Source of the DNA: Dehalococcoidia bacterium
Lineage (GTDB): Bacteria > Chloroflexota > Dehalococcoidia > SM23-28-2 > RBG-16-64-32
Length of the DNA stretch: 64,000 nt
Direction: 5' to 3'
NCBI GenBank assembly: GCA_963665775.2
Contig: CAXXTF010000002.1
Location: 928,001 to 992,000 of the forward strand
The notes beneath the pieces were generated by a model. That model did no database searches. It worked only from the letters and a program-made list of their open reading frames with translations, and was not told the origin of the DNA. Below, piece by piece: positions 6,655 to 57,698 of this stretch (its first letter is position 1; the number at the start of each line of letters is the position of its first letter). The translations under genes and the position numbers were made by a program.

Positions 6655-6729
6655 TCCCCGGTAGCTCAACGGTAGAGCGGGCGGCTGTTAACCGCTAGGT
6701 TGTAGGTTCGAATCCTGCCCGGGGAGCCA
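6655..6729 (+). tRNA. tRNA-Asn(GTT); integration target of the island
   Basis: Acceptor TCCCCGG/CCGGGGA, anticodon arm GCGG-CTGTTAA-CCGC, TTCGAAT loop, CCA. Confidence 0.97.
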
Positions 6730-7119
6730 GTTCACCAGCCAGGAGTTTACCCAGGTCCTTCAGGACCGCGGTGTGAAGATCAGCATGAACGGGAAGGGAA
6801 GGTATGCGGACAACATCTTCGTGGAGCGGCTGTGGCGCACGGTGAAGTACGAGGAGGTGTACCTGAAAGCCTACGCCAGCGCGGGGGAGGCCCGGAGGGA
6901 ACTGGGAGCTTACTTCCGGTTCTATAATGACCAGAGGCTCCATCAGGCCCTGGGATACCGGACCCCAGGCGAGGTGTTCAGCGAGGCCACGGCCCTCCGG
7001 GAGGAAGAGTCGAAGAAGAGGAGGTGTTCACCGGAACCAGTGGTGGTATCATCGGCAGAAGTGGCGGGACTCTCACTTAACTCCGCCCCAATTCTGTCCA
7101 ACTGACTGGGTCCACCTCA
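6722..7119 (+). mobile_element. IS3-family transposase 3' half with right end, fused directly to tRNA-Asn
   Basis: GSQFTSQEF...ISMNGKGRYADNIFVERLWRTVKYEEVYL; terminal ...CTGTCCAACTGACTGGGTCCACCTCA. Confidence 0.88.
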
Positions 7120-7331
7120 CTTTCCAAACAGCCTGGTGTCCTGCGGGTGCGGGAGATCACCTCGCCGCAGCCGGACGGGACGGCGGCCGGCAGGTCGCCC
7201 GCCTGCGACGGCAACAGGACCAGTGGAGGACAGGCGCCGTCCCGATAGGCGCCCGCACCGCTGAGGTCAAGCGAGGCCACGCGACCGGCCATGCACTGAG
7301 AAGACCACTCCCCCACAGGAAGAAGACACAG

Positions 7332-10300
7332 ATGATTCAAGGAAGGCTGTTCAGGGCGTCGGCTGTTGCCTTCGCGATGGTAGCCGTCACGTTCTTCGCG
7401 GTGTTCGGCTCCGGGGCGTCCGCCGATGAGGAGGAGGTCAAGACTCGGGACCAGGGTCAGGACGAGGCTGTGACGCTCCCGGAGAACCAGGCTCCGGCCA
7501 TCCCAGAGAAGCAAGGACAAAGATACCCCAACCTCGGCTCCCACTTGGACCGACTGGTGATCCAGGTCGAGGCGGGAGAAGCCTCCGTTCAAGACGCCGC
7601 CGAAGGCGCTGCGATGCCCGGGGGAGGAACGGTGGCAGTGACCATCCACCTCTCCGGCAACGTGGATGAGGTCGTTAGGTTCCTGGAGGACAACGGGGGC
7701 GACCCGCGCAACGTGGGTGAGGACTACATCGAGTCATACGTGCCGGTTACCTTGTTGAGACGGGTCTCGCAGCAGGCGGGCGTCATACGTGTGCGGGAAA
7801 TCGTCGTGGCGGAGCCGGACCAGAGTCCCTCGCGGGTGGCCGGGCACGGCCCGCCCGTGCACGGCTCCGCGGCCTGGAACAAGGTCGGATACGCCGGGCA
7901 GGGCGTCAAGGTAGGGATAATCGACGGTGACTTCAGGGGCCTGAGCAGCCTCATGGGAACCGACCTGCCGACGACGGTGGTCGCCCGCTGCTACACGGAT
8001 GTCGGCGTGTTCTCCAAGAATCTCGCCGACTGCGAGGCGGTCAGTGACGAGACTGTTTACCTCCCGTTCCCGGAATGTGGCGAAGCTGTTCAGCGCAGCA
8101 GCGTCCGCGATGCCGGTCATGGCACGATAGTTTCCGAGGCGATCATTGACATAGCTCCGGAGGTGTCACTGTACATCGCCAACCCACAATCAAAGGCAGA
8201 CATGCAAGATGTCGTTGAGTGGATGGCATCTGAAGGTGTAGCGGTTATCAACCAATCACAGAATTGGTTCCTTGATGGTCCCGGCGATGGCACTTCGCCA
8301 CGCAGCAACAGTCCGCTACGGACCGTGGATCTGGCCGTGGCCCGCGACATCACTTGGGTCAACTCAACTGGCAATACTGCTCGGAATACCTGGTTTGGGG
8401 GCTACGAGGACCCGGACGGCGATAGGATCATCAGCTTCGCGAGCGGCCTGAATGGCGAATTTCTCGATATCCCTGTCGGGGAGTGCAGGAGGTATACCGT
8501 TCAGCTGCGGTGGGAAGACACCTGGAACGGAACGAGTACGGATCTCGACCTATATCTTTACGACAAGCGATCTGGCGAACTCATTCCAGCAATGTCCAGC
8601 CGGGATGAACAATCGGGAGAAAGTGGTCATGAACCATTTGAATGGTTGCGATTCTGGTCCAGGACTGACAGCGATGATCTTAGTCTAGTAGTATACCACC
8701 ACGGTGGCGACGCGCCCGACTGGATTCAGTTGATGGTATGGGGAACCGCGTCTATCGAGCACTACACCAAAAGCGGCAGCATTGGGAACCCGTCGGAGAG
8801 CGCGAATCCCGGTTTGTTGGCGGTGGGCGCAGCCCATTGGGACGACGTTCGCGCCATCGAACCCTATAGCAGCCGCGGTCCAACCCCCGACGGGAGGGTT
8901 AAGCCCGACGTCGTCGGAGCGGACTGCGGAGCAACGGCGCTGGAACCTCTGAATGAGTACAACCAAGGATTCTGCGGCACCAGCCAGGCGGCGCCCCACG
9001 TGGCCGGTATGGCGGCCCTTGTACGCCAGCGGTTCCCAGGTTACACCCCTGCCCAAGTGGCCGGGTACCTGAAAGACACTGCCCAGCAGCGCCAGAGCCC
9101 CGACCCCAATAACACCTGGGGGCACGGATTCGCCAAGCTCCCGGCGCCCGACGGGTCAGTGTCCACGGTGCCGACGCCGTCCAATGCCTTTACCCGGAAT
9201 CTTGCGGCGGAATTCGACACATTGACCGGCGCTTTCAATTGGACGCCACAGGGCATCTGGTCCGACGGGACGACGATGTGGGTGGCGGACTGGCTCGACG
9301 CTAAGCTCTACGCATACCACGCGGTGACCAAAGCGCGGGTCCCCGGCAGGGACTTCGATACGCTGGCGGCCGCCGGCAACACTTGGCCGAGTGGCATCTG
9401 GTCCGACGGGACGACGATGTGGGTGGCGGACTGGCTTGACCAAGAGATTTACGCCTACGACATCGCGTCCAAGGCGCGGGTCCCCGGAAAGGAGTTCAAC
9501 ACCCTGGAAGCTGCCGGCAACGCTTGGCCGCAGGGAATCTGGTCCGATGGGACGACGATGTACGTCGCGGACTTCGCCGACGAGAAGATCTACGCCTACG
9601 ACATGGAGACGAGGGCGAGGGTTCCCGGCAAGGACTACGATACCTTGAGGGCCGCTAGAAACAGGTCTCCGCGTGGCATCTGGTCTGACGGGACGACGAT
9701 GTGGGTGGCGGACTCGGATAAGGAGAAGGTCTACGCCTACGACGTGGCGACGCGGGCACGGGTTTCCGGCAGGGAGTTCAATACCCTGGAAGCTGCCGGT
9801 AACTGGGGACCGCGAGGCATCTGGTCCGACGGGACGACGATGTGGGTGGCGGACTTCACGGGCACTGAAGAGACGATATACGCCTACTCCATGCTGAAAG
9901 AATCTGCCGCGGACAAGGGAGAGCTGATTGCCTTCTACAACGCCACCGGCGGCACTGGCTGGACGAACAACGCCAACTGGCTGACGAGCTCACCAATGGG
10001 CCACTGGCACGGCGTAACCATCGACGACGATGGCCGCGTCACTCGACTGGATCTCCACAATAACCAACTGAGCGGGAATATACCGTCGGAGTTGGGCAAC
10101 CTCTCCAATCTAAGAGAGCTGGTACTGAGCGAAAATCAGTTGACCGGGTCTGTCCCAACGTGGCTGGGGAACCTCGCCAACTTGACGGTGCTGAGCTTGG
10201 GGGGCAATCAACTGACGGGGGAGATACCGACTGAGTTGGGGAGCCTCTCCAACTTGACGGTGCTGAGCCTCTCAGACAACCAGTTGACCGGGTGTATCCC

Positions 10301-11147
10301 GGTCGGCATCGCGGGCGTGGCGAACAATGACCTCGATCAGATTGGCCTACCGTTCTGTGGGGGTTCGCAAGGGGCTCCAAGCATAAACTCGATCACTACT
10401 GGAGCTAATTTCCTCACCGTCACCTGGACTGCGCCGGGCGTCTCCGGTGGATCGGCGATCATCGCCTATGACCTGCGGTATATCCAAAGCGACGCCACCG
10501 ATAAGTCCGACGCCCGCTGGGCCGTTGTGGATAATGCGTGGACTACCGGCTCCGGCCCTCTGAGTTACCAACTATCGGGTCTCACCACCATTACCCAATA
10601 CGACTTGCAGATACGGGCAGTCACCGCCACCGGTGATGGCCCCTGGTCTTCCACTGCCACCGGAACGCCGACCCCGCCCACGGGCGCGAGCGCCACCCGG
10701 TCCTTCTCCGCAGCCTGGGTAGCGCCGGGCGGGACGTTGACGGTGACCATCACGGCGGACAACTACGGGAGTCTGGGCAGGATCGTCGAGGACGTTCCTG
10801 CCGGGTTCACCACCGAGGACGGCAGCCAGACGGTCATCATCAGGCTGCTGGCCGCAGGACCTCAGACCAGCACCTACACCGTTACCGCCTCCGACGTGGA
10901 GGGTTCCTATACTTTCTCCGGCACCCTGCGGGATGATGAAAGGAACAATCATGCGGTTGGTGGCGATACCACGGTGACGGTGTCCTCTGGGGACCCGCTG
11001 GTTGCGAGGTACGACGCCAACAACAACGGGACGATTGAAAAGAACGAGGTCATAACGGCCATAAACGACTATCTGTTTGGTGTGGGCGACGCCGCCATCA
11101 GCAAGGCAGACGTGATAGAGGTCATCAACCTCTACCTATTCGGTTGA
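7332..11147 (+). CDS. Secreted S8 subtilase with GIWSDGTTMWVAD propeller repeats, LRRs, FN3 and a C-terminal EF-hand/dockerin-like domain
   Basis: Triad GIIDGD / HGT / GTSQAAPHVAG; five GIWSDGTTM repeats; LxLxxNQLxGxIP LRRs; YDANNNGTIEKNE; signal peptide from ATG 7332. Confidence 0.88.
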   Translation: MIQGRLFRASAVAFAMVAVTFFAVFGSGASADEEEVKTRDQGQDEAVTLPENQAPAIPEKQGQRYPNLGSHLDRLVIQVEAGEASVQDAAEGAAMPGGGTVAVTIHLSGNVDEVVRFLEDNGGDPRNVGEDYIESYVPVTLLRRVSQQAGVIRVREIVVAEPDQSPSRVAGHGPPVHGSAAWNKVGYAGQGVKVGIIDGDFRGLSSLMGTDLPTTVVARCYTDVGVFSKNLADCEAVSDETVYLPFPECGEAVQRSSVRDAGHGTIVSEAIIDIAPEVSLYIANPQSKADMQDVVEWMASEGVAVINQSQNWFLDGPGDGTSPRSNSPLRTVDLAVARDITWVNSTGNTARNTWFGGYEDPDGDRIISFASGLNGEFLDIPVGECRRYTVQLRWEDTWNGTSTDLDLYLYDKRSGELIPAMSSRDEQSGESGHEPFEWLRFWSRTDSDDLSLVVYHHGGDAPDWIQLMVWGTASIEHYTKSGSIGNPSESANPGLLAVGAAHWDDVRAIEPYSSRGPTPDGRVKPDVVGADCGATALEPLNEYNQGFCGTSQAAPHVAGMAALVRQRFPGYTPAQVAGYLKDTAQQRQSPDPNNTWGHGFAKLPAPDGSVSTVPTPSNAFTRNLAAEFDTLTGAFNWTPQGIWSDGTTMWVADWLDAKLYAYHAVTKARVPGRDFDTLAAAGNTWPSGIWSDGTTMWVADWLDQEIYAYDIASKARVPGKEFNTLEAAGNAWPQGIWSDGTTMYVADFADEKIYAYDMETRARVPGKDYDTLRAARNRSPRGIWSDGTTMWVADSDKEKVYAYDVATRARVSGREFNTLEAAGNWGPRGIWSDGTTMWVADFTGTEETIYAYSMLKESAADKGELIAFYNATGGTGWTNNANWLTSSPMGHWHGVTIDDDGRVTRLDLHNNQLSGNIPSELGNLSNLRELVLSENQLTGSVPTWLGNLANLTVLSLGGNQLTGEIPTELGSLSNLTVLSLSDNQLTGCIPVGIAGVANNDLDQIGLPFCGGSQGAPSINSITTGANFLTVTWTAPGVSGGSAIIAYDLRYIQSDATDKSDARWAVVDNAWTTGSGPLSYQLSGLTTITQYDLQIRAVTATGDGPWSSTATGTPTPPTGASATRSFSAAWVAPGGTLTVTITADNYGSLGRIVEDVPAGFTTEDGSQTVIIRLLAAGPQTSTYTVTASDVEGSYTFSGTLRDDERNNHAVGGDTTVTVSSGDPLVARYDANNNGTIEKNEVITAINDYLFGVGDAAISKADVIEVINLYLFG

Positions 11148-11167
11148 TTCGGGTCCAGTCAGGTATC

Positions 11168-11201
11168 GGGAGGGGGTTCCTCCGTCACGGATCCCCCTCC
11201 C
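11168..11201 (+). terminator. GC-rich hairpin after the S8 gene
   Basis: GGGAGGGGG...CCCCCTCCC inverted repeat; no clear U-tract. Confidence 0.45.
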
Positions 11202-11218
11202 AGAACGTCACCTAACAA

Positions 11219-11455
11219 ATGAGGAAGAACTTGGTATTGAGAATCGCGTGGGCGGCAATGATGGTCACGGTCACAGCGGGCATGGTGGCCGTGGTGAGCA
11301 TCTTGTCCGCGGCCGCGCAGTCGGCTTCCGGCGCCAGCCGGAGCTTCGATTCGGCGTCGGTCGACCCCAGCGGAGAGGTGGCGGTGATGGTCACCACCAC
11401 CTACTACGGCTAGGCCAGAGGCGTCACCGAGACCCTGCCCGCGGGCTTCGCATGA
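11219..11455 (+). pseudogene. Truncated surface-protein gene sharing a domain with the S8 C-terminus
   Basis: Signal peptide + ASRSFDSASVDPSGEV...YG*ARGVTETLPAGF, similar to ATRSFSAAWVAPGG...YGSLGRIVEDVPAGF; TAG at 11411. Confidence 0.65.
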
Positions 11456-11500
11456 TGCGGTAGAACTGGGACTAACTACAGGTACAGCACCAGGGTCAAG

Positions 11501-11605
11501 GTGAAAGTTCTTGATTTTATCAAGTTTGGTGGGCCTAAGTGTACTGAAGCTAGCACCGTCTTCGAGCTTTGGCTGGGCGGGTTGGGCGGCCGTGCCGGAC
11601 GATAG
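11501..11605 (+). pseudogene. 3'-terminal remnant of a second-type serine recombinase with att-like core
   Basis: VLDFIKFGGPKCTEASTVFELWL resembles VLSTLPDGGPKYTKSRTFVLRL at the end of 30680..31620; 16/18 nt match. Confidence 0.5.
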
Positions 11606-11748
11606 GCTGTACCAACTTCTTGATGTGGCGGGCCGGACTGTGAGCGAACATTCGCAGTTCACAAAAGACACGAATCGCTCAGGTACTGGTGGGTAGTGGA
11701 CTTGAAGTACTACATGGCACGCGTGGCAGGCCCGCAACAAAATGGGGC

Positions 11749-13380
11749 TCAGAGGCGTACTCCGCCGGTCTTCTGAATTCTGAATGCGTGGGACGACACG
11801 TGCCCAACAAACAGCCCGCTCTTGTCCTCACCCCTGGCTAATTCGGCCACCCTCGCAAGGTCCGAGTCTGAAGTACGCACTCCGCCGTAGATTTCCTTGA
11901 TGGCCTCCGGCGGAACATCGACCACTTTGATCGGCCAGCCGTTGTCATCTTTCTGCCCAGTATCTCGCGCCTCCTGCAGATCCACCAGCAGTCTGCCCTC
12001 TCTTTCGTATTCCCACGATGGACCCTTTACGAACAGTAGCCGGCACAGGGCTTGCCAGTCTGCTCCTAGCTGCGTGAGCTCCACAGTTCCTAGAATCGGT
12101 GTTCCATTTCGAGTTCTGCCCGCCCTGGTGTCCTGGTCCATTCGCTCACGATCAGCAAAACGTAACTGAATGACATCGCCCTTTGTCGGCTCGTACACAG
12201 GGGCAATCTCCGTGTAACTCACCTGTCTCAATTCAAAGCCGAGGCTCCTCAAGACTTCCGTATCGTAGCCAACGACTATCCCTGTGTTGAGGGCATAGTG
12301 CGTCCACATCGTCGGGACCGATACGTCCGTGCTCAAGGAGACGACCCCCACAAGAGGATTCAGGGATTCCTGAATGAAGGTCGATAGTCTCAGGTCACCG
12401 AAACGGAGCGCCCGTTCCATGAGCTCCTCTTCCGCCACCTCCACTCCCAGACATTCCTTCAATCTTGACTGCACCCGGGCGATGAAATCGAGAGCATCCA
12501 TCTTCTGGCCGCGCATCGTTATGACATTGCATTCCATGTCGTCGTTCAGGGCCAGCAGTTGGGTTGCCCGCAGGCTGTTCGGCGCCCCTCTGCCAATGTT
12601 CTTCTTGGGTATGTACTTGTACAGGACGCCTGGAACGTCAGCCCTGCCCTCTGCCAGCCTATCCGCGCACTCTTGGAACTGGAACGTTTGGAGCCAGTGG
12701 ACCATGAGACCACGCAAGTTTGACTGCACCCACATGCGGCCCCTTTCGCTCCGAGAGGCTAGCGAACGCCAGGTTGAGGCTGCGTTAGCCGCCGCTCTCA
12801 ACCTGACCGGTTCGCTAAAGGCGTGGTAGCGTCCGTCGACCTGGCAGTAGAATCCTTCTTGCTCAGATGGTTCTATAAGAGCTTCGACGCCTGCGTCTCC
12901 GTTTGCCCTCGGAGCATTCTGTGAATTGGCCAACCTCTGGCGCAGTCGCTGGACGTAATCCTGGTGTCTGACGTTTGGAGACTTGCTTGCCCGGCTGGCC
13001 GTCTCGCCTTGCAAGCCGAAGTCAGAACAGAACACGGCGTAGTCTTGACCCTTCGATCCGCGGCAGTCGCAGTCGTCAGACAAGGTCTCGCACCACGGGT
13101 AAGGACCCTGAGCCAACCGAAACTCGTGGTCGTCCCAACCCTTTGGGAAGCTGTCCTGAATGGATTCCCAGTTCTCGATGTTGTGGACACGCTCGGACAG
13201 CTTAGTAGATATCTCAAAAGAGAAAAGGCGCGGGCGTATCGGCACCGGTGAGTCGGGATTCTCTCCGCCAAGTCGACTTTGGAAGAAAGTCTTGGCCTGC
13301 TCCAGCGACCACCCCGACGCCTGGAGCTTAATCCACATCTGATTACTTTCAAGGGCTATTTCGTAGAGGTGATGCTTCAT
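11749..13380 (-). CDS. DUF2971-like domain protein, possibly defence-related
   Basis: LYKY...LRATQ..ALND..E, VVSLS...MWTHYA...GIVVGYD, K..SWEYEREGR motifs in the C-terminal half. Confidence 0.65.
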   Translation of the reverse strand: MKHHLYEIALESNQMWIKLQASGWSLEQAKTFFQSRLGGENPDSPVPIRPRLFSFEISTKLSERVHNIENWESIQDSFPKGWDDHEFRLAQGPYPWCETLSDDCDCRGSKGQDYAVFCSDFGLQGETASRASKSPNVRHQDYVQRLRQRLANSQNAPRANGDAGVEALIEPSEQEGFYCQVDGRYHAFSEPVRLRAAANAASTWRSLASRSERGRMWVQSNLRGLMVHWLQTFQFQECADRLAEGRADVPGVLYKYIPKKNIGRGAPNSLRATQLLALNDDMECNVITMRGQKMDALDFIARVQSRLKECLGVEVAEEELMERALRFGDLRLSTFIQESLNPLVGVVSLSTDVSVPTMWTHYALNTGIVVGYDTEVLRSLGFELRQVSYTEIAPVYEPTKGDVIQLRFADRERMDQDTRAGRTRNGTPILGTVELTQLGADWQALCRLLFVKGPSWEYEREGRLLVDLQEARDTGQKDDNGWPIKVVDVPPEAIKEIYGGVRTSDSDLARVAELARGEDKSGLFVGHVSSHAFRIQKTGGVRL

Positions 13381-13700
13381 TGGTTCCCATCCACGAACGA
13401 GGTTCCGCATATGGGTCTGTCCGGTACAGTCCCAGACTCATCGCGGTGGTTGGTCTAGGGTCAGCATCGCTTTGGCACCGGTTAAGAGTCAACCGATGCG
13501 CGTCCTCCAGCGGGCCGTCCCTTCCAGCTCGGGGCACGATTTCCTGTTTCTTCGCAACCACCAACGTGTACGGTAGACAGGGCTATCTTCGAGATATGGC
13601 TGGGTGGCCTTGAGGATTCCCATACCGCCCTATAACCGTTTGGTGCAGGCGTCACTCGATATGACAGTAGAATCCCTGCCTGGCTAACTGTTCGACTAGG

Positions 13701-14708
13701 TCAATCATTAGAGTTGTGTTCCTTCTCCCCCTGCTCCTCCCCCTTCGCCATGCGGTAGCCGACCCTTGGCTCGGCGAAGAAGTAGGTGGGGTTGCTGGCA
13801 TCCTCGCCCAGCTTGCTGCGGAGCCGCTTCAGGTGCGTGCGGAGCGCCCCCAGATCGTCCGGCCTCTTGGCCCCCCAGAGCCTTCGTAGCAGCTCATCGT
13901 GGGTCAAGACCCGCCCGGCGTTGACCGACAGCTCGTAAAGGAGCTGATACTCCTTGGCCCTCAACGCCACCGGGCGGCCTGCAAGCGTGACCCGGCGCTC
14001 GGCGTAGTCGATGATGAGGTCGCCCAGCACGTAGGGCTCCGGCGGCTCGGATTGGGGATGGCCTCCACTCCGTCGCAGGGCCGCCCTCACCCTGGCCACC
14101 AGCTCGGTCGGCGAGAAAGGCTTGACGATGTAGTCCGAGGCTCCGGCCTCGAAGGCCCGCGCCACCACCCGGTCCCGGCCGTAGGCGGAGAGGAAGATCA
14201 CCGGCACGTCTGAAACGCCAAGGATGTCCCTCATCAGCTCGATGCCGTCGGAGCCGGGCAGCATCAGGTCAAGCAGGACGAGGTGCGGCCGGTTCTCCTC
14301 CATGAGCGGCAGGGCCTCCACCGGGTCGGCGGTCACTATCGCCCTGTAGCCCGCCTCGGACAGCGCCTTCCTCACGTACCGCAGCGTTTCGGGATCGTCG
14401 TCCACCACTAGGATCGACTCCGCCTCCGACTTCTCCTGTCGAGGGCCCTTGGCCGGCCGGTTGCGCTCCACGGCGGCCTCGTCGACCGCCGGTACAGTGA
14501 AGGTAAACCGCGCCCCCAGCCCCGGCCCGTCGCTCTCGGCCCGGATGCGCCCTCCGTAGGCCTCGACTATCCCCTTGCAGATGGCCAGGCCCAGGCCGGT
14601 GTCCCCTCCCGGGTCGTCGTCCTCGCGCTGGGAGAACTTGCGGAACAGGTGTGGCAGATGCTCGGTGGGTATGCCCCTGCCTTCGTCGGCAACCGAGACC
14701 GTGGCCAA
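13701..14708 (-). pseudogene. 5'-truncated hybrid regulator: HATPase end + REC + OmpR-type wHTH (KdpE-like)
   Basis: VADEGRGI, GTGLGLAI, ILVVDDD, LLDLMLP, KPF, LRSKLGE..NPTY...EPRVGYR; begins mid-ATPase domain. Confidence 0.8.
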
Positions 14709-14832
14709 GGTGGGTGCCAGCCTGTCGATGGTCGGGAGGCCAACACCAGGCTCGCCTGTCTCATCGAGGGTCCCTGTCGTAAGTGGCTCGGTGGTGGGGG
14801 AATCAGGAAGTCCCGTGGAGTCCTTCGACCGC

Positions 14833-15672
14833 CTACTCCCGCATCATCTCGACGAAACGGTTGCCTATCTGCTCCGCGCCCCGTTGGTAGGAGACCGGCA
14901 CCCACCCCTCCGGGTCCTCGCGGATGCGCCCTGCCGTCTCGGGGTTTTCTTGCACATCCTCCCAAACGAGGGCCCAGCGCCTTTCTGTGGGGAAGAGGCT
15001 CTGTGGCGAGTCCGACGCTCCGCCGTCGTCCGCCGTCATGTCTTCTATCATCGGCCGGTCGTACTCAGAGACCTGCCGAACCGCCACGTTGGCATAGCCC
15101 TCCAAGAAGTCCAGCTCCAGGGCGCGGCTCTCCTCTATGGCATAGCGGTGTATTGCTTTCAGCTCTGCCGCCATCTCCCGGACGCGCCTCACGTGGGCCT
15201 CCCACGCCTCGATCACCCGCTCGTTGAGTTGCACGCCGCTCTCCTTGCCCACGGGCAAGCGCTGCTTTCCCCATACCCCCCAAACGTATTCTCGCCAGAG
15301 TTGCGCGGAGAGTTAAGGGCTTGCCCGGCCTTAGGTAGGAGTTTTCGATGAGCAGGGGGCGTGCGGCCTCATTGAAGACTATCGCCTCCTCTACCTCCAC
15401 CAGCGCCCGCTCGAACCATAGGATACGGTCCCGCATTAGGAGTTCCCTTTCCATGCCGTTTACCAGATGAGTGAGCGTCTCCAAGTTGGACTTTAGGATT
15501 TCGTAGCGGCTTACGATGGCGAGAGCGCCGGTTGCTCCCGGAACAAGTTCTCGATGACCAGGCGGGCCTTTTCCTCCGGCCATCCCGAAAGGGCTTCGAC
15601 TATGTCCTCCAAGCGCTTTTCCGGGGAAAGGGCTTCGACTATGTCCTCCAAGCGCTTTTCCAGTGATCCCAT
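14833..15672 (-). pseudogene. Element conserved ~300-aa protein, copy A (frameshifted, 39-bp internal duplication)
   Basis: [25 protein letters not shown] motifs shared with 42519..43427; tandem duplication 15587-15661. Confidence 0.8.
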
Positions 15673-17543: not shown

Positions 17544-17544
17544 C

Positions 17545-21258: not shown

Positions 21259-21259
21259 C

Positions 21260-44996: not shown

Positions 44997-45022
44997 CGCC
45001 AGTCGCGGCGGTGCAAATAGCG

Positions 45023-49170: not shown

Positions 49171-49463
49171 GGTTGAGCCTACTACGGTACGCAAGCCCAG
49201 GGCTGTAACGCGCCTGACACTAAGTGTCGATAGTGGCGATTATGACAGGAGGCTCCGCGTCGAGATCATCAGGGCCTAGAGTGGCTGCGATAAGCGAATG
49301 CAGAGAGTGGAACTGCCAAGCGACACTTTTCGGCTGCACACCAGAGGTGACTCCGGATAACGCCGCATCTGACCGTCGTGGCGACGGTGTATAATCGGGC
49401 CACTGAGATCTTGGCCGCTAGTGTCGGCCAGGAACGCGGGGAAAGACTAAAAGGGAGGCTTTA

Positions 49464-50687
49464 ATGGGATCTCTCACCAGGAAAGCGGCCATCGTCGGTG
49501 CGTATGAACACCCGTTACGGGTAGCCCCTGGCTACACGGAGATGGGGATTGAGATGGAGTGCGCCAAGGCGGCGCTGGAGGACGCCGGCCTAAACTTTGA
49601 GGATGTGGACGGCTTCTTCGGGGTCACTGCACCGGTGGAGAACATGAGCGCCGCTACCTATTGCGACTATCTGAACATTCACCCCCGGATCGTCGGCGAC
49701 ACAAGTATAGGGGGCGCTACGTTCCTCCGGTTTGTGCTGGAGGCGGCGTCCTTCATCAACGCCGGCCTGATGAACGTGGGGCTCATCACCTACTCCCAGC
49801 TCCTCGTCAGCCGGGGTTGGGGTCTCTTTCGGCCTATCTCCTTCGGCGGTACCGGCGGCTCGAAGCGACCACGTAGTGCCTCGGCGATCAGGGCGGCAGC
49901 TCGCCCCGCTCCCTCGTGGACCGAGGCTTTCTCCGCCCCCTACGGTCTGGTGGGGGTAGCCGGCTACGGCCAGGTGGCGCAGCGCCACATGCACGAGTAC
50001 GGCACGACCAGCGAGCAGTTGGCGGAGATCGCCGTGGCCACCCGCTACAACGCCTCCTTCAATCCCCAGGCCAAGTACCAGAGCCCGATCACGGTGGAGG
50101 ATGTGGTAGACTCGCGGCTGATCTGCTCGCCCCTGCACCTGTTGGACTGCTGCGTTGTCACCGATGGCGCTGGTGCCGTAGTGGTGGCCAGCCCGGAGGT
50201 AGCGCGGGGCTGTAAGCAGCCGCCGGCATGGGTGTTGGGTGGGGCGATGGCGATCGGGCACCGCGACGCCGGCTATCGGGACTACGGGCGGATCGCCGCC
50301 GCCGAATCGGGCCCCCGGGCCTTTGCCGACGTTGGGCTCAGCCAAGACGACATCGACCTATGCATGCTGTACGACTCCTACACGATCACCGTCCTGACCA
50401 CGCTGGAGGGGCTGGGGTTCTGCGAGATCGGCGAGGGCGGGCCCTTCGTGGCCAGCAAGAACATGCGGTTCGACGGGGACTTTCCACTTAACACCGATGG
50501 TGGCGGGCTCTCCTCCAACCATCCGGGGGCCAGGGGGATGTTTCTGTTGATCGAGGCCACCCGGCAGTTGCGGGGCAACCAGGGGAAGAGCCAGGTGAAG
50601 GACTGCAAGATAGCCCTGTGCCACGGCACCGGTGGAACGATAGGAACCATACATAGCGGGGCCACCGTGTTCCTGGCCAAAGACTAA
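49464..50687 (+). CDS. Thiolase-like protein (SCP2/nsLTP type)
   Basis: PLHLLDCC.VTDGAGA, YDSYT, NTDGGGLS.NHPG.RG, EATRQLRG. Confidence 0.9.
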   Translation: MGSLTRKAAIVGAYEHPLRVAPGYTEMGIEMECAKAALEDAGLNFEDVDGFFGVTAPVENMSAATYCDYLNIHPRIVGDTSIGGATFLRFVLEAASFINAGLMNVGLITYSQLLVSRGWGLFRPISFGGTGGSKRPRSASAIRAAARPAPSWTEAFSAPYGLVGVAGYGQVAQRHMHEYGTTSEQLAEIAVATRYNASFNPQAKYQSPITVEDVVDSRLICSPLHLLDCCVVTDGAGAVVVASPEVARGCKQPPAWVLGGAMAIGHRDAGYRDYGRIAAAESGPRAFADVGLSQDDIDLCMLYDSYTITVLTTLEGLGFCEIGEGGPFVASKNMRFDGDFPLNTDGGGLSSNHPGARGMFLLIEATRQLRGNQGKSQVKDCKIALCHGTGGTIGTIHSGATVFLAKD

Positions 50688-51017
50688 GTCACCCTGATTG
50701 CGCTTCAGGCACGGAAGTGCGCCAAATGACCGCCCAGGGATTAGGACGGTCGCGGCCTTGAACCGCCGAACACTATGACTTCATCGTGTACCCTGGCAGC
50801 CATACTGGCCTTGACAACCCGTCACGAATCGGAGCTGTGTGTCTAGGCAGATAACTTTACCCAAGAGTTTGGGTTGTGGCCTATTCCGACCCTCATTGCG
50901 AGGCGCTGAAGGGAGTACTATAATCCTTTCTCACTAGCGTGGCGGCAGGGGCTTGAGGGGGAGGACCACGCCGCCCTTCAGGGTCCGTCGGATCTGGACG
51001 GCGGAAGGGAGATCGCT

Positions 51018-51755
51018 GTGATCAGAGTTCGTCGCAATAGTGAAATCTACGAAGTCGTGGGCGACTGGTATCACGCCCGCTGGCACTTTTCGTTTGAGAC
51101 GTACAACGATCCCGAGAATGAAAGCTTTGGGGCTATGCGCGTGTTCAACGACGACCGCCTGACCCCCGGTGCCATCTGGCCGCTTCACCCACACCGTGAC
51201 GTCGAAGGGCTCACCTATGTCGTGGAAGGCACGTTCGGACACGAGGACAACGTCGGAGGCTCATATGGACCACTACCGGCCGGGTCGGTGCAACGCATGA
51301 CGCTGGGCTCAGGGGCGCTCCACTCCGAGCAGAACGCGTCGAAAGACGAACCGATGCGATTCGTCCAGATCTGGATCCTCCCAGACACACCTGACCTCAA
51401 GCCAGGAGTCGAGCAGCGTGTCTTTACGCTCGAGGACCGCACCAACAGGCTCCTGAAGGTCATCGGTCCCGAAGGAGGCGACAGTGTCCGGCTTCATCAG
51501 GACGCGTCCGTCCACATCGCTTCGCTGGAGCCAGGCGTTGAGGTCACGCACGAGATTAGCACGCGCCGTGGCGTGTATGCATATCTGATCGATGGCGCGG
51601 CCCGGTTCTTCGAAGAGCACCTGCATACTGGCGACGCGGCCAAGGTGACGGACGAACCCGATCTTCGCATCCGTGCGGTTAATCGGAGCGAGCTCATCCT
51701 TGTGGATGTGCCAATGCAGTTCAAACCAGTGGGGATATGGAAGGGCCGAATCTGA
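51018..51755 (+). CDS. Pirin family protein
   Basis: HFSF..Y.DP, RVFNDD, HPHRDVE..TYV.EG...H.D, VQRM..GSG..HSE.N. Confidence 0.92.
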   Translation: MIRVRRNSEIYEVVGDWYHARWHFSFETYNDPENESFGAMRVFNDDRLTPGAIWPLHPHRDVEGLTYVVEGTFGHEDNVGGSYGPLPAGSVQRMTLGSGALHSEQNASKDEPMRFVQIWILPDTPDLKPGVEQRVFTLEDRTNRLLKVIGPEGGDSVRLHQDASVHIASLEPGVEVTHEISTRRGVYAYLIDGAARFFEEHLHTGDAAKVTDEPDLRIRAVNRSELILVDVPMQFKPVGIWKGRI

Positions 51756-51767
51756 AAGGAGCATATT

Positions 51768-52313
51768 ATGAGTGACTTGGACACCAAGGAGTCCGCCACT
51801 TTCGTTCGGGTTACGCGATTGAATCACGCCGTCCTATACGTTCGGGACCTGAACCGGTCGGTGGAATTCTACCAGCTAGCCTTCGGATTCCAAGAGATCG
51901 CCCGCGAAGCGGGGAAGATGGCCTTCCTGCGCTCCCGCGGATCCAGCAACCACCATGACCTTGGGCTTCTGGAGGTGGGACCGACGGCCGCGCAGCCGGC
52001 GCCCGGATCTACCGGACTCTACCATCTGGCCTGGGAAGTGGCCAAGATTGAGGATCTGGCCGAGGCTGCCTCCCTGCTGGCCGATCTAGGTGCGCTCACT
52101 GGCCAGAGCGATCACGGGGCTACCAAGTCGCTCTATGGGCGCGATCCCGATGGCAATGAGTTCGAGGTAATGTGGATGGTTCCCCGGGACCGATGGGGCG
52201 AATTCGATAGCCGCGCCGTGGTGGCCCCCCTCGACCTCAGACACGAACTAACTCGCTTCGGCAGTGTCCAACGGGACAACGAGCAGGCAGCGCGCCGCGC
52301 CAGCAGAGATTAG
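51768..52313 (+). CDS. VOC/glyoxalase family protein
   Basis: LNHAVLYVRDL, NHHDLGL, GLYHLAW, DHG.TKSLY..DPDGNEFE. Confidence 0.9.
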   Translation: MSDLDTKESATFVRVTRLNHAVLYVRDLNRSVEFYQLAFGFQEIAREAGKMAFLRSRGSSNHHDLGLLEVGPTAAQPAPGSTGLYHLAWEVAKIEDLAEAASLLADLGALTGQSDHGATKSLYGRDPDGNEFEVMWMVPRDRWGEFDSRAVVAPLDLRHELTRFGSVQRDNEQAARRASRD

Positions 52314-52459
52314 CCAAATACCCTTCGTTCATGTCACCGAGCGCCTTATCAGACGGTTGGGCGACCACACTAAGTCCGCATAGCCTCCCCCCAGATATGT
52401 TATTCTCCACCCCAGACGTTTCCATCAATATGATGACATGAAGATTAGGGTGACATCCC

Positions 52460-53335
52460 ATGCGCTTCGGCCTCGATGAGCCCGAGTCGCACTTCTATGA
52501 ATCTCAACGGCTCCGGCTGCACTACGTGGTATGGCGTGAAAGCAGCGGCCCTCCGCTCCTGCTTATCCACGGCAGCAGGGAGCACTGCAGAAGCTGGGAT
52601 TTCGTGGCGCGGACGCTCAAGGACCGCTATACCATCTACGCTCCCGATCTTAGGGGTCATGGCGATAGTGAGTGGGTTACAGATGGCTCTTACGGAACAC
52701 CTGAATTTGTCTTGGACATAGCGACTCTAGCCGAAACGATTGAGGGTTCACTTGCCATCATGGGTTTCTCCCGGGGCGGAAACATCGCCCTGCAGTATGC
52801 CGGAGTATTTCCGGAGAGAGTGTCGAAAGTGATAGCGGTCGAGGGACTCGGACCTCCCATGGTCGCTCACAGCCCGGACGGCATGGCCCCCCCTGCACGA
52901 ATGCGGCATTGGATCGACAGCAGGCGCCACGGGGAGCGACGACGATTGCGCAGGCATGTTTCCGTAGAGGAAGCTACTCGCCGAATAATTGAGGTGAACC
53001 CGCGAGTCAGCCCCGATATCGCTCGCCATTTGGCCCTTCATGGCATCCGGAAAAACGAAGACGGCACCTACTCGTGGAAGTTTGATAACTACCTCGTCGC
53101 AGGCGCAGGCGGTCTGCACCCTGACGGGGGCGAGGAGCTTTGGGCCAACATTCGAGCGCCCGTGCTTCTCGTAACTGGAAGCGAAAGCTGGTCCGCTCAT
53201 CCGGAGTGGCAGGCAAGAGCCCGCGCACTCCCCTTTTATCGCTCGGCGGTTATCGAGGGCGCTGGTCACTGGGTCCACCACGAACAGCTGGACCGCTTCT
53301 TGGAGGTAGTGGAGGCGTTCTTAGCGGACGGCTAA
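52460..53335 (+). CDS. Alpha/beta hydrolase
   Basis: LIHG, PDLRGHGDS, GFSRGG nucleophile elbow, GAGHWVHHE. Confidence 0.92.
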   Translation: MRFGLDEPESHFYESQRLRLHYVVWRESSGPPLLLIHGSREHCRSWDFVARTLKDRYTIYAPDLRGHGDSEWVTDGSYGTPEFVLDIATLAETIEGSLAIMGFSRGGNIALQYAGVFPERVSKVIAVEGLGPPMVAHSPDGMAPPARMRHWIDSRRHGERRRLRRHVSVEEATRRIIEVNPRVSPDIARHLALHGIRKNEDGTYSWKFDNYLVAGAGGLHPDGGEELWANIRAPVLLVTGSESWSAHPEWQARARALPFYRSAVIEGAGHWVHHEQLDRFLEVVEAFLADG

Positions 53336-53459: not shown

Positions 53460-54868
53460 CTACGCCGCCCAATCCAGGGACAGTACCTCGGCCTGTTCGA
53501 GGACGATGATGGTGGCTTTCTCTTGCTTGTCCGGTGGGTAGCCGTATCTCCGAAGGATGCGCTTCACAATCGTCCGGAGCTTCGCCCTCACACTCTGCTT
53601 GACTGTCCAGTCGATGGTGACGTTGCGCTTCACCGCGTCGACGAGCTCGCGAGCGATGGTCCGGAGGGTTTCGTCGCCGAGCACCTGGACGGCGCTATCG
53701 TTGACGCCGAGGGCATCATAGAATGCCAGCTCCTCGTCCGATAGGCCGAGGTCTTCCCCTCTCGCCTCGGCTGCCTGCATGTCCTTTGCTAGCTTGATCA
53801 ACTCCTCGATCACCAGGGCGGTCTCTATTGCCCGGCTCTGATAGGCGCGAACTGCACGCTCCAACATCTCCCCGAAGGACCGCGCCTGGACCACGTTTTT
53901 CTTGGCGCGCACCTTGATCTCGTCCTTCAGGAGCTTCGACAGCAGGTCGACGGCAAGGTTCTTCTGGGGCAGACCGCGTACTTCGGCGAGAAATTCGTCC
54001 GAGAGGATGGAGATGTCCGGCTTCTTAAGTCCGGCAGCAGCGAAGATGTCGACCACCTTGTCGGACACTATGGCTCTGGAGATGATCTGGCGAATCGCGT
54101 TATCGAAATCCTCCTCTGCCTTGCCACTCACGGAGGACTTGGCTATCGCTGCCCGGACGGCCTGGAAGAAGGCAACATCATCCCGGATGCGGATGGCCTC
54201 TTCACGAGTAGGGGCTAGGGCGAAGGCGCGAGAAAGATCAGTGACTGCTTTCAGAAACCGCTCTTTGCCGTCCACCTGGGCCAGGATATGCTCCTGAGCT
54301 GCAGGCAGAACGGAAAGCCGCTCTAACGGAGAGCCGGTCGTGAATGCCGAATAGTCTAAGCCGTCGAACATGGCCGCCACGATCTCGTACTTCTCCAGCA
54401 TGACAGCAGCGGCCTCTTCCAGATCGACGGCCGTGGTGCCTGAGCCGCCGCTCTCCGTGTAATTGGCAATAGCGCGCCGGAGCTGGTCAGCGAGGCCAAG
54501 ATAGTCAACTACAAGCCCGCCCGGCTTATCGCGGAATACGCGGTTCACGCGAGCTATGGCTTGCATGGAGTCCGTGGCCACGCATCGGCTTGTCTACGTA
54601 CATCGTGTGAAGGCTCGGAGCGTTGAAGCCCGTGAGCCACATGTCCCGTACAATCACAGCCTTGAGGGGGTCGTTTGGGTCCCGAAACCTCTTCGCCAGC
54701 GCCTCCCGGCGCGCCTTATTCCGAATGTGGGGTTGCCATGGCAGGCGATCTGAAGCCGAGCCAGTCATGACGACCTTCAGCGTGCCTTTGCTGTCGTCGT
54801 CCGGGTGATGCCACTCCGGCTTGAGGTGGACAATAGCGTCGTACACCTCTACGCAGATCCGTCGGCTC
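53460..54868 (-). pseudogene. hsdR: Type I restriction subunit R, C-terminal part (frameshift near 54570)
   Basis: [44 protein letters not shown] / [29 protein letters not shown]. Confidence 0.9.
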
Positions 54869-55431
54869 TCCTCGATCAGATAGCCGTAGATGGCCTTCAC
54901 CTCGCCAGCCAGCCGCCGGACCCGCCCGACGAGGAGTCCCAGTACCTCCACTATTCGCTCATCGAGCTGAACGCCGCTGGTCTTGCCGATTGGGGATCGC
55001 TTCTTCTTTCCCCAGACACCGAGGCGGACGGTCCCCAGAAACGCCCGAATCTCCAACGGTTCGCCGGGCTTGAGGTTAGGATTCTTCACCAACAGGGCGT
55101 TTGCGACAGCGGGGTCGAACACGATCGCCTCCTCCATCTCGACCAGCGCCCGTTCAAACCAGAGGATGCGGTCGCGCTCAAGGAGCTGCCTCCGCGCTTC
55201 ATCGACCAGCTGAGCCAGCAAACGAAGGTTAGGTAGAAGCACCTGGTACCGGGTTATTACCGCGTGATAGCGGTCCCACTCCTGGCTGCTGAGCGCCCGA
55301 ACCATCTTAAGACGGTCGCCCGGGGAGAGCGCCGGCTCCTTGCGGACGGTGTCCTCTATGGCCAGGCGCGCCTTCTCCTCGGGAGAGAGGGCACGGATGA
55401 TCTCTTCGAGTCGTTTCTCTTTGGACGTCAT
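54866..55431 (-). pseudogene. Element conserved protein copy F, fused in frame to the hsdR fragment
   Basis: MTSKEKRL...LIEES then HsdR RRIC. Confidence 0.85.
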
Positions 55432-55823: not shown

Positions 55824-57107
55824 TTACCTTCCCTTACATATGCTAACAGGGGGCTTGCTTGCCATCGCCGGAGTTGGGGCCTTTTCCGCCTTAATGCCGG
55901 TGAAGGACTCCCAGCGGGCGATCGCTATCCGGCAATAGTGTGGGTCTAATTCCATGCCATAGCAGACCCGCCCTGTCCGCTCGGCGGCGATGAGGGTGGT
56001 GCCCGAGCCGAGGAAGAGGTCCAGCACTACATCACCCGGTCTGCTGCTGTTCTCGATGGCCCGCTCAACCAGGGCCAGCGGCTTCATCGTGGGGTGCAGC
56101 TCCGACTCCGCCGGGCGGGGGAGGGTCCAGACGTCACCCTGGTCGCGGTCGCCGCACCAGTCGTGTGTGGCTCCCTCTCGCCAGCCGTACCAGATGGGCT
56201 CGTACTGGCGCTGGTAGTCAGCCCGACCGAGGGTGAAGTGATCCTTGGCCCAGATGATGGTGTCCGACCAGTGGCCACCGAGTTCCTCCAGGACGCGGGA
56301 AACCGTAGCCCACTCCTTGGTGGACATGCAGATGTAGGTGGCACCCTCCACCGACTCCAAGAGGTTCTTCGCCCAGGCGCGACAGAACGCCTCCCATTCC
56401 TCCGGCGACAGAGCATCGTTCTTGATCCGGCGCTTGCGGGTGCCCCGCTGCTGGCCGCCGTGATCGCCGTAGCTAACGTTGTATGGCGGATCCGTGAAGG
56501 CCAAGGAGGCTTGCCCTGTGCCCACCAGGCGGCCAACGTCGCCCTGGTCGGTAGCATCCCCGCACGTGATGCGATGGTCGCCGAGCCGCCAGACCTCGCC
56601 TCGCTCAACGCCGGGGTCGGCCTGGGCCGCCTCCAGGGCAGCGTCGAGGTCAAACGTCTCGGGCCGATCCCGCTTTTCACGGACGTTGAGGGAGCGAAGC
56701 AAGTTCTTGATCTCGTCCTCCTCGAAGCCGGTGAGAGTTATGTCGACCTCGGGGGCCTCGCCCAGCTCGGAAAGGAGGCGGGCCAGCAACTCATTGTCCC
56801 AGTCCCCGGAGATGCGGTTGAGGGCCAAGTTCAAGAGCTTCGCCTGCTCCACAGTGAGTTCCACGAAGATGACTGGAACGGTGGCGTAGCCGAGGCGGCG
56901 GGCTGCCAGGAGACGTTGATGGCCGCCGATGACACATTGGTCTTCATGGCGAGCGATGATGGGGTCTACCATGCCAAATTGCTGGATGCTGCGGGTCAGC
57001 GACTCCAATTCGGCATCGGAGATGCGCCTGGGGTTGAAGGGGTCGGGCCGGAGATCGCCGATGGGGACGTGCTGAATCTCGATTTTCGTCTTCGCTTCTG
57101 CAACCAC
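55824..57107 (-). CDS. ParB-DNA methyltransferase fusion, copy F (complete)
   Basis: NPRRI, IGGHQRL, FTDPPY, HPTMKP, DLFLGSGT; GTG 57107 with GGAGG RBS. Confidence 0.92.
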   Translation of the reverse strand: MVAEAKTKIEIQHVPIGDLRPDPFNPRRISDAELESLTRSIQQFGMVDPIIARHEDQCVIGGHQRLLAARRLGYATVPVIFVELTVEQAKLLNLALNRISGDWDNELLARLLSELGEAPEVDITLTGFEEDEIKNLLRSLNVREKRDRPETFDLDAALEAAQADPGVERGEVWRLGDHRITCGDATDQGDVGRLVGTGQASLAFTDPPYNVSYGDHGGQQRGTRKRRIKNDALSPEEWEAFCRAWAKNLLESVEGATYICMSTKEWATVSRVLEELGGHWSDTIIWAKDHFTLGRADYQRQYEPIWYGWREGATHDWCGDRDQGDVWTLPRPAESELHPTMKPLALVERAIENSSRPGDVVLDLFLGSGTTLIAAERTGRVCYGMELDPHYCRIAIARWESFTGIKAEKAPTPAMASKPPVSICKGR

Positions 57108-57128
57108 GATGGCCCTCCAAACCAAACG

Positions 57129-57158
57129 AAAAAGCCAGCCCAGAAGACCTGGGCTGGC
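57129..57158 (-). terminator. Intrinsic terminator immediately upstream of MTase F
   Basis: GCCAGCCCAG-5nt-CTGGGCTGGC followed by TTTTT on the minus strand. Confidence 0.7.
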
Positions 57159-57211
57159 CTCAATACTCCACACAGGGTCTTAGCCTGTGAAACCTTCTTT
57201 AATTATCTTAA

Positions 57212-57442
57212 TTATATCACAAGGTAGACCATTTCACTGCAGCCTCGATGTCTCAGGACTTCGGCAGGGCTCCCGCCCGCTGTGCCATTTCTTATGTGAC
57301 GCCACACCTGTCGCCACTCGTTTCGGGGACTCTTGCGGCGACATTGGGGGCAATAGACGACATCCTCTTTCCGCGTCGCGTTTGGCTCCCGGCCAGCCAC
57401 GCGGCCCGCGCCTCTTGGAAGTGCCCCTCCCTCTCTCATCAC
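57212..57442 (-). CDS. Small Cys/His-containing hypothetical protein
   Basis: YCPQC...HRGC; short, no family recognised. Confidence 0.35.
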   Translation of the reverse strand: MMREGGALPRGAGRVAGREPNATRKEDVVYCPQCRRKSPRNEWRQVWRHIRNGTAGGSPAEVLRHRGCSEMVYLVI

Positions 57443-57461
57443 TCCCCTAGACCGACGCCCA

Positions 57462-57698
57462 TCACTTCTGAGCGGGCCCGAGAACTTGGGTCACCCGCGC
57501 CCGTGAAACACCCTGGAGGCGAGCAAGAGCAGCGCGGTTTGGCGCTGCACCCGTTTCAAGCAGCCCTCTCCAGGAGTCCGCCAGATCCTGGACAGCCTTC
57601 CTAGCCGTTGCCTTCCGGCGAGACCAGTTGAGGAGGCTAGCTAAGCGAACGGGGAAAGACTGCCGCAGAACGCTCTGGGACACAAATCCGGGGAGCCA
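57462..57698 (-). other. attR-type end carrying a detached recombinase C-terminal tail with HTH
   Basis: Core CCGGGGAGCCA 57688-57698; reads WLPGFVSQSVLRQSF...NRAALARLQGVSRARVTQVL*; no recombinase upstream. Confidence 0.75.

Follow-up and report, generated by a model that had tools for sequence, protein, structure and literature searches.

A probable tandem array of serine-recombinase islands at the tRNA-Asn gene of a Dehalococcoidia bacterium, with a displaced recombinase tail

The 64,000-nt stretch analyzed here (the window; positions 928,001 to 992,000 of contig CAXXTF010000002.1, assembly GCA_963665775.2, from a Dehalococcoidia bacterium) contains, over ~51 kb between 6.7 and 57.7 kb, what we consider very likely to be a partly decayed tandem array of one family of serine-recombinase islands at a tRNA-Asn(GTT) gene. 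A reading made beforehand from the letters of the window (the sequence-only reading) had proposed that repeated copies of the tRNA 3′ end in this region are attP-like junctions between stacked islands, closed by a terminal attR, and that proposal is borne out by the polarity of the sites, their direct orientation and the arm kept at the attR, as well as by P′ arms and second sites in relatives. Added here are the breadth of the tRNA-Asn-specific family to which the islands belong and a conserved recombinase tail that lies displaced from its gene.

The target, tRNA-Asn(GTT) (6655..6729, plus strand), is the sole tRNA-Asn gene of the genome and part of a tRNA-Leu, tRNA-Gln, tRNA-Asn cluster at 6447-6729 that was identified by ARAGORN and in which Rfam agrees; besides these three tRNAs the Rfam scan of the window found nothing. 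The integration core is its final ~10-15 nt. The 15-mer GCCCGGGGAGCCAGT has exact copies at 6717, 24163 and 35269 and a minus-strand copy with two mismatches at 19990-20004, giving four matches where 0.48 were expected (four or more were reached in 0/100 shuffles), and the 11-mer CCGGGGAGCCA has a further exact copy at 57688. These match counts and shuffles confirm that the tRNA-Asn 3′ end recurs, three times directly (24163, 35269 and 57688) and once in inverted orientation (~19990). The 11-mer ceases to be remarkable when one mismatch is tolerated (9 matches versus 3.8 expected, with 9 reached in 3/100 shuffles). Across the 2.35-Mb genome, counting both strands, CGGGGAGCCA occurs 15 times, and among these copies an ACGCTYTG arm is found only on the four non-tRNA copies of this region.

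The sequence-only reading had described that arm as standing to one side of each copy. It is indeed beside all four, 9-10 nt from the block of identity, but three of the sites are two-armed. These three share a 48-bp inverted-repeat frame, ACGCTYTG-N32-CARAGCGT, at 19973..20020 (minus strand, inverted relative to the tRNA), 24147..24194 (plus) and 35253..35300 (plus), and the frame occurs exactly three times in the genome, always in the window, versus ~0.0014 expected from the arm frequencies. Each consists of inverted arms (ACGCTYTG plus 9 nt, the outer arms being 8 nt) that flank a block identical to the tRNA's final 10-15 nt, and the symmetry centre of every full site is GGGG/AGCC, with 24 nt on either side (between 19996 and 19997, 24170 and 24171, and 35276 and 35277). 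The same 48-bp layout with the same centre is found in the second site of G031, a relative discussed below. Because the symmetry centre lies there, we infer that strand exchange takes place at GGGG/AGCC, which would put the crossover within tRNA-Asn between 6724 and 6725. Large serine recombinases use short att sites of ~40-50 bp whose imperfect inverted half-sites flank a crossover dinucleotide at the centre, and the window's sites, with their predicted crossover position, are of this kind.

The fourth copy is different in that it retains the left arm only, its right flank being without recombinase similarity: the P arm ACGCTCTG (57670-57677) is followed by the core at 57688-57698 (site 57670..57698, plus strand; centre between 57693 and 57694). 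Since only the element-side arm is kept, this copy reads as a true attR. An extension of the array past 57698 was considered and rejected, as the recombinase similarity lies solely on the P side. Three of the four non-tRNA copies are in direct orientation relative to the tRNA. At each full site the P′ side holds a recombinase, and at three of the four non-tRNA copies a ParB-methylase gene occupies the P side; at 24163 the P arm is down to ~25 bp.

All of the full sites fall inside recombinase reading frames, near codons ~535-550, where a conserved W-L-P is the antisense of GGGAGCCA. The sequence-only reading had placed a recombinase 3′ end beside three copies; the site is within the frame and not next to the gene's end. 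The first of these genes, rec1 (18372..20183, plus strand, in inverted orientation; 603 aa), is the only intact large serine recombinase of the window. It matches Resolvase (PF00239, E 4.8e-32), Recombinase (PF07508), the zinc-ribbon family PF13408 and PHROG 95 "integrase" (E 1.6e-113), and carries every family-invariant residue (R27-V28-S29 is invariant across 26 homologues); the AlphaFold2 model of a homologue, P0057, has long helices at 377-466 following the zinc-ribbon strands, as in an inserted coiled coil. By its domains and residues rec1 is classed as a large serine recombinase of the phage or integrative and conjugative element type (a serine integrase), and it is predicted to catalyze attP x attB recombination. 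The second gene, rec2 (24044..25207, minus strand), is homologous to rec1 residues 198-571 (89% aa identity) and lacks the catalytic domain, with the homology ending at 25207/25208 where a multi-copy repeat starts. The third, rec3 (35093..36913, minus strand), is a full-length homologue (69% aa identity to rec1) that, unlike rec2, retains the Resolvase domain, and it is a pseudogene with an internal TGA and TAG. A PF00239 search of the genome found Resolvase domains within the window in just rec1 and rec3. Since rec2 is without its catalytic domain and rec3 has two stops, the array is decaying. Part of another large serine recombinase, unrelated to these, remains at 30598-31620, with the Recombinase and zinc-ribbon domains only (24% identity to rec1 over residues 258-479).

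With attP inside the recombinase gene, integration splits the gene, and a tail is then expected at the attR. Exactly there, at 57465..57698 (minus strand), we found an open 78-codon frame that starts from W-L-P, reads WLPGFVSQSVL...NRAALARLQGVSRARVTQVLGPAQK before its stop, and has a helix-turn-helix-like end. It is 60% identical to residues 539-610 (the last 72) of a 613-aa full-length homologue (E 2e-25) and sits 22 kb from rec3, at the far end of the last unit. Judged from this arrangement, integration detaches a conserved 78-codon recombinase tail, a point absent from the sequence-only reading. The P side of the distal sites in the relatives G031 and G066 carries the same tail frame. The tails at 19973-20020 and 35253-35300 represent another, shorter type, which reaches the start of the ParB-methylase gene.

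Are the copies in the databases whole or split? There are 440 homologues in the protein database at E <= 1e-20, and we classified the tails of the best 120 of them: 50 have a 13-residue tail, W..xxDSNxxxxG, five have a shortened version of it, 21 stop no more than two residues past WLP, 15 have another tail of 6-39 residues, 14 have a long tail of at least 40 residues, and in 15 the WLP motif was not detected by the pattern. The antisense translation of the window's tRNA-Asn is WLPGQDSNLQPSG, followed by a TAA in the anticodon loop, and because the W..xxDSNxxxxG tail matches it, most database copies represent the integrated, truncated form. In eight of the 14 long tails WLP runs on into a helix-turn-helix-like end (...NRAELARRxGVSRARVTQVLG), and in seven of these eight, and in P0001, what comes after WLP is xxV(S/P/A)QSV, the P arm in antisense. 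AlphaFold2 gave the full-length homologue the usual serine-integrase layout, with low confidence at residues 516-568, which include the attP-encoded part, and beyond them a helical end with block predicted local distance difference test (pLDDT) values of 74-84; the window tail modeled alone had a mean pLDDT of 82 and block values of 85-94. A Foldseek search of the tail against the PDB gave no matches at E <= 0.001, the best weak ones being helix-turn-helix DNA-binding domains of DeoR, SopB, ParB and Noc, and Pfam gave KORA/YdaS at sub-threshold scores only. As the Foldseek matches are non-significant and those to Pfam sub-threshold, "helix-turn-helix-like" is a description of the tail and not a family assignment.

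Could the splitting of the gene have a role in recombination? We raise, as a speculative idea that we think has perhaps some chance of being correct, that the recombinase is a split-gene state switch. On the circle, or in an island behind another island, the enzyme would be full length, with an attP-encoded linker that is flexible and then a small tail that binds DNA; in a copy integrated at the tRNA it would be tail-less and end in 13 residues of tRNA-Asn antisense. The tail might be required for attP x attB recombination, or it might permit the use of occupied sites. If the tail does set direction, this cross-phylum family would have its directionality control within attP, and this could also explain how serine recombinases build tandem arrays.

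Evidence for the target comes from relatives, other genera among them. Within the taxonomic order of the window's genome, the tRNA cluster is kept in 40/41 genomes searched. Ten loci of the family or order could be read past tRNA-Asn; three of them pass directly into a P′ arm, GGCTCAGAGCGT, and then the 3′ end of a recombinase gene, the remaining seven into unrelated AT-rich sequence. Strong recombinase homologues were found by protein search in 7/65 genomes of the order, the window's own included, and they abut the tRNA cluster in G008, G026 and G031. In G031, a one-contig genome of another family, the tRNA cuts the recombinase at residue 543, and at a distance of 34.6 kb from the tRNA there is another full palindromic site; no attR was found within 79.5 kb. 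We also read the 60 kb downstream of the tRNA in G065, G066, G067 and G068, which revealed a second P-O-P′-like site at 28.5 kb in G066 and an attR-like site at 16 kb in G067.

A wider sample was drawn from a named collection by an alignment query (a single-protein locus query in the genome collection returned no loci), which yielded 66 loci; 20 were dropped, seven because they cover the N-terminal part of the query only and 13 because they are distant (22-39% identity, mostly labelled Firmicutes), and the other 46 were scanned with ARAGORN. Some of these loci possibly come from the same genomes as those named above, and the counts are not independent. The homologue ends in tRNA-Asn(gtt), in antisense, at 26 of the 46, where the matches end at query residue 543-544 and the labels are Dehalococcoidia, Chloroflexota, Omnitrophota, Planctomycetales and others. 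In sequence terms, then, the relatives confirm tRNA-Asn as the target. No tRNA lies within 150 nt of the homologue end at 17 loci, several of which have the core, or a tRNA-like 3′ half followed by a P′-like arm, that ARAGORN does not call.

Two groups of loci in this sample deserve mention in their own right. At L050, L052, L057, L059 and L063 (labelled Omnitrophota, PVC group and Planctomycetales) the recombinase ends in a tRNA-like 3′ half, consisting of a T arm and ...GGGGAGCCA, and then comes a P′-like arm, with sequence that is not tRNA-like upstream of the half; each half may be a tRNA fragment displaced at an array junction, or else belong to an unusual tRNA gene. At L051, L055, L082 and L084 the relatives have a different tRNA-like 3′ end beside them. 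Two of them, 52% identical, abut tRNA-Arg(gcg); of the two that are 39% identical, one overlaps tRNA-Gln(ctg) and the other, among the 17 without a nearby tRNA, is 524 nt from a tmRNA. This suggests target switching among tRNA-like ends.

We propose the following history. Each island would have entered the 3′ end of the single-copy tRNA-Asn(GTT) gene through the action of a large serine recombinase, and after strand exchange at GGGG/AGCC the element would supply the tRNA's last bases. With attP inside the recombinase gene, integration would leave the body of the gene on the tRNA side and its last 60-80 codons at the far end by the attR; the truncated gene at the tRNA would read antisense through the tRNA to the TAA in the anticodon loop, while at an island-island junction it would gain its neighbour's tail. 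Repeated integration would thereby create P-O-P′ junctions. Later, an inversion between inverted ParB-methylase copies would have turned round rec1 and the first internal junction, the first attL arm would have been lost in a deletion that ran into a fragment of an insertion sequence (IS) of the IS3 type, an IS-like repeat would have truncated rec2, and rec3 would have gained its stops.

The inversion can be reconstructed in some detail. The islands had been delimited as units at 6.7-24.2, 24.2-35.3 and 35.3-57.7 kb; the later two stand, and the first is composite. The stretch from 6.7 to 24.2 kb holds a second unit end at 14.8-17.5 kb, made up of a conserved unnamed gene, here called Y, and a ParB-methylase fragment, as well as an inverted recombinase-attP-ParB block. 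The fragment is the C-terminal (methylase) part of a ParB-methylase (16929..17546, minus strand) and ends abruptly at the residue equivalent to 210, and ParB-methylase 1 (20187..21665, plus strand), which begins 4 nt past the rec1 stop, has only ParB_N by Pfam, although residues 26-409 of ParB-MT3 align to it by tblastn. An inverted repeat, 17102-17544 and 20816-21258 (85% identical), brackets exactly 17545-20815. When this segment was flipped in silico, one uninterrupted 420-aa minus-strand ParB-methylase frame resulted, colinear with ParB-MT3 residues 28-431, every site became direct, and rec1 came to lie on the minus strand. One inversion by homologous recombination would therefore account for the layout, leaving four units of ~11.6, 5.8, 11.1 and 22.4 kb.

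Nor is the junction at the tRNA a normal attL: the C-terminal 125 codons of an IS3-type transposase (6731..7105, plus strand) start there, fused in frame to the tRNA end directly behind ...GGGGAGCCAG, and this fragment stands where the P′ arm and recombinase of the first unit would be expected. At the codon where the junction has CCGGGGAGCCAG followed by TTCAC, related IS3 copies of the genome have CAGGGAAGCCAG followed by TTCAC. Because these relatives carry core-like sequence at the junction codon, the P′ arm and recombinase of the first unit were probably lost at a near-copy of the core, through look-alike-site recombination or a microhomology deletion. Full IS3 relatives bear a 15-of-17 look-alike of the core at the junction point (CAGGGAAGCCAGTTCAC versus CCGGGGAGCCAGTTCAC).

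Does the array still move? Since a normal attL is missing and a single recombinase is intact, the array is, to judge from its present structure, probably fixed as a whole, and present-day mobility is unlikely; neither excision nor a circle was observed. In public runs, searched as assembled contigs over 17000-36990 of the window, no joints were found at the cores. Two joints, 34284>23117, which goes back, and 18482>36816, on the opposite strand, are best explained by paralogy (15371-15448 and 16157-16246; rec1 and rec3). The other contig joints are of low depth and away from the cores, and a contig start at 35271 reflects only the shared repeat.

An explanation that we judge improbable begins with a single integration and derives most of the array from paralogues that underwent local duplication, unequal crossing-over and homologous recombination. 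In its favour, rec1 and rec2 are ~94-95% identical in DNA over 1 kb, the layout needs at least one inversion between paralogous copies, more primase-ParB-methylase-Y modules exist elsewhere in the genome, and canonical large serine recombinases are not expected to act at occupied sites. However, cargo differs between units, rec3 is the 69% relative of rec1 described above, the ParB-methylase copies are 45-88% identical, the junctions coincide precisely with complete, directly ordered 48-bp sites, and second sites exist in G031 and G066 too. Because their cargo differs and their recombinases are 69-89% identical in protein, the units are not fresh duplicates. The DNA identity of rec1 and rec2 nevertheless points to some local duplication or gene conversion, which is the first of several observations that weigh against stacking by integration.

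Another is that the entry of a second element into an occupied site, an attL or attR, is the weakest step of the stacking model and is unexplained because, to our knowledge, attB is the only partner of attP for well-studied large serine recombinases (Bxb1 and phiC31, for example). Furthermore, the tRNA copy of the core has no arm to its right and two of the three recombinases are defective. Among relatives, the recombinase copy in G031 looks frameshifted, no second core copy occurs within the 60 kb read in G065 and G068, and since five of five further genomes searched have a single family copy each, arrays are not the rule. An empty attB with both flanks of this genome was not found among the relatives. 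The comparison of empty sites is without an anchor because the flanks of the tRNA cluster are non-syntenic between genera and the family of the right-flank gene (58095..59054) is 20-fold expanded. A glyoxalase gene (51768..52313) was considered as the original flank, a homologue following tRNA-Asn in two relatives, and rejected, as the family is generic and an equally similar paralogue lies elsewhere. Finally, 58 nt at 57992-58049, 300 nt right of the attR, resemble the Y 3′ end region (33634-33691 and 43377-43451) and are 83% complementary to 33634-33691; this is unexplained, and the stretch could be a trace of an older unit. Further to the right, at 58095-62034, are four tandem paralogues of ~310-320 aa without a Pfam match; most relatives have one match to their family, versus 20 in the present genome.

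Stacked integration, as opposed to duplication, remains for us the best account, and two further alternatives can be dealt with briefly. That the repeated core is merely conserved W-L-P coding sequence of paralogous recombinases, without att function, is very improbable: all full sites do lie inside recombinase frames and WLP is near-invariant in the family, but the 57688 copy has no recombinase body on its right, coding alone does not demand a DNA palindrome, the 26 homologues end exactly in tRNA-Asn, and the low AlphaFold2 confidence at the attP-encoded residues fits a model in which they are under little protein constraint. Equally hard to credit are decayed prophages integrated at tRNA-Asn, since, although the recombinase, primase and ParB-methylase match PHROGs integrase, primase and methyltransferase families, there were no capsid, terminase, portal, tail or lysis genes in the part of the window's open reading frames (ORFs) that was scanned, 40 against Pfam and 10 against PHROGs.

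The units share a backbone and differ in what they carry. Where preserved, a ParB-methylase gene (ParB_N plus N6/N4-methylase) and then Y stand on the P side. Unit 1a has cargo at 7106..14708, with a subtilase-LRR-fn3 protein (ORF 6927..11147), a DUF2971 protein (11749..13410, minus strand) and a HATPase_c/receiver/Trans_reg_C protein (13701..14708, minus), followed by Y1 (14818..15627, minus; matched in three pieces, two of them overlapping). The interior of unit 2 (25208..33642) contains multi-copy IS-like repeats (25208-26771), an HNH endonuclease, an RNase_H_2-like ORF, a nucleoside 2-deoxyribosyltransferase, a Cache-repeat protein and the serine recombinase remnant (30598..31620), and at its right end Y2 (33643-34386, minus) abuts an N-terminal ParB part of a ParB-methylase whose methylase domain is deleted (34355-35086, minus). 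The Cache-domain protein (27579-29315) has 387-nt tandem repeats with copies 87% identical, and in run X11 its summed contig depth rose to ~41,000 versus ~55-85 around it. Unit 3 has an ECF-like sigma factor (37269..37868), a CHC2-finger primase-like protein of 868 aa (38238..40844), and the backbone ParB-methylase (40844..42127) and Y (42519..43427), all on the plus strand; then cargo (43734..53335: Spondin_N/SnoaL, PQQ beta-propeller, Kelch-repeat, thiolase-like, pirin, glyoxalase and alpha/beta hydrolase proteins); and at its right end, on the minus strand, a C-terminal fragment of a type I restriction R subunit (53460..54581), Y3 (54526..55431) and ParB-methylase 3 (55824..57173). It therefore has two oppositely oriented ParB-methylase-Y pairs.

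Several side observations on these genes can be added. Y3 is chimeric, its first ~210 residues alone matching other Y copies, while its C-terminal end and the ORF that follows are both fragments of a type I restriction R subunit (T1R_D3-like; T1RH-like_C, E 1.4e-133); by these matches the Y3 C-terminus and 53460-54581 make up a truncated cargo gene. Some of the cargo is repeat-rich and eukaryote-like, namely the subtilase-LRR-fn3 (6927-11147), PQQ beta-propeller (45306-46949) and Kelch (48034-49170) proteins. Some public runs labelled as sponge metagenomes contain small shares of the stretch, and one gave short pieces, which is a lead on habitat and not a finding. Outside the window, the genome (G000) has two further primase/ParB-methylase/Y modules, at C2:229464-237164 and C2:256876-260206, with 74-93% protein identity to those of the window; the first is beside a different serine recombinase (Resolvase domain C2:236724-237164) and the second has tRNA-Arg(ccg), at C2:266012, ~6 kb away. 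It seems that the maintenance module moves in the company of different integrases.

What do these islands tell us more widely? The family as a whole keeps its tRNA-Asn target across Chloroflexota, Omnitrophota, Planctomycetota and other phyla. In the window, a single-copy essential tRNA has become a landing pad that gathers cargo, here repeat-rich secreted proteins, regulators and small-molecule enzymes. The displaced conserved tail offers a testable idea on directionality in serine integrases, and natural integrase/att pairs aimed at a conserved tRNA end could serve the genome engineering of poorly tractable bacteria.

Several known systems invite comparison. An attP inside an element gene that integration partitions or truncates, so that its product is changed, is familiar from the SSV1-type integrase genes of archaeal viruses and from the integration-dependent immunity of mycobacteriophages; unlike the islands described here, those cases use tyrosine integrases, and in the mycobacteriophages the gene that is cut is a repressor. 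The SCCmec islands of staphylococci are integrated by large serine recombinases, both CcrA and CcrB being needed, at the 3′ end of an essential single-copy gene, rlmH/orfX. That target is protein-coding and two recombinases take part, whereas the window's target is a tRNA, and we know of no attP within a recombinase gene in SCCmec. As summarized in PMC3146451, SCCmec resembles the islands in its direct repeats, its composite or tandem arrays and an unclear mode of cell-to-cell transfer. The tycheposons of Prochlorococcus (10.1101/2020.12.28.424599) are cargo islands stacked at tRNA genes, where newer ones push older ones along, and have primase/helicase modules and degenerate remnants. By that description they are like the window in tRNA-gene integration, stacking and a replication module, and most are unlike it in the recombinase, 910/937 having tyrosine recombinases and 27/937 a large serine recombinase, the class that the window's family uses. 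None of the literature searched (main texts without supplements) describes a serine recombinase that targets tRNA-Asn, and the word "tRNA" has no occurrence in the main text of a large serine recombinase catalogue (PMC10083194) and its preprint.

By description, the closest known system is that of the Dehalococcoides ssrA islands, which, according to McMurdie et al. 2011 (PMC3146451), are tandem islands at the 3′ end of ssrA (tmRNA) bordered by short direct repeats. The sequence-only reading had drawn this parallel, correctly as to tandem islands at tmRNA, but had given dsiB as the array's repeat where it is the integrase gene (PMC3146451). DsiB is a large serine recombinase of ~540 aa encoded on the reverse strand by attL, with its 3′ end overlapping the repeat, and the authors speculated that an entire integrase may exist solely on the circle or where another island adjoins; the module further comprises a ParB-domain protein, a DNA-modification gene (Mom), a large primase-like protein, the small recombinase DsiA and varied cargo (PMC3146451). 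The window is similar in that, there and in relatives, the att repeat is embedded in the integrase gene's 3′ end, and in its tandem array and its module with ParB, DNA modification and an 868-aa primase-like protein, the likeness between rec1 and DsiB being one of described layout and not of compared sequences. It is dissimilar in that ParB is fused to an N6/N4 methylase, in contrast to separate ParB and Mom proteins, and in that no RecF homologue is among the window ORFs scanned. New relative to the ssrA islands are a true tRNA as target (the genome's tmRNA is far off, at C2:612018), the lack of a second small serine recombinase of the DsiA kind in the window by the PF00239 genome search, and a family that spans several phyla. 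The more distant relatives at tRNA-Arg, at tRNA-Gln and, in one instance, near a tmRNA may tie the Dehalococcoides tmRNA islands to a much wider group.

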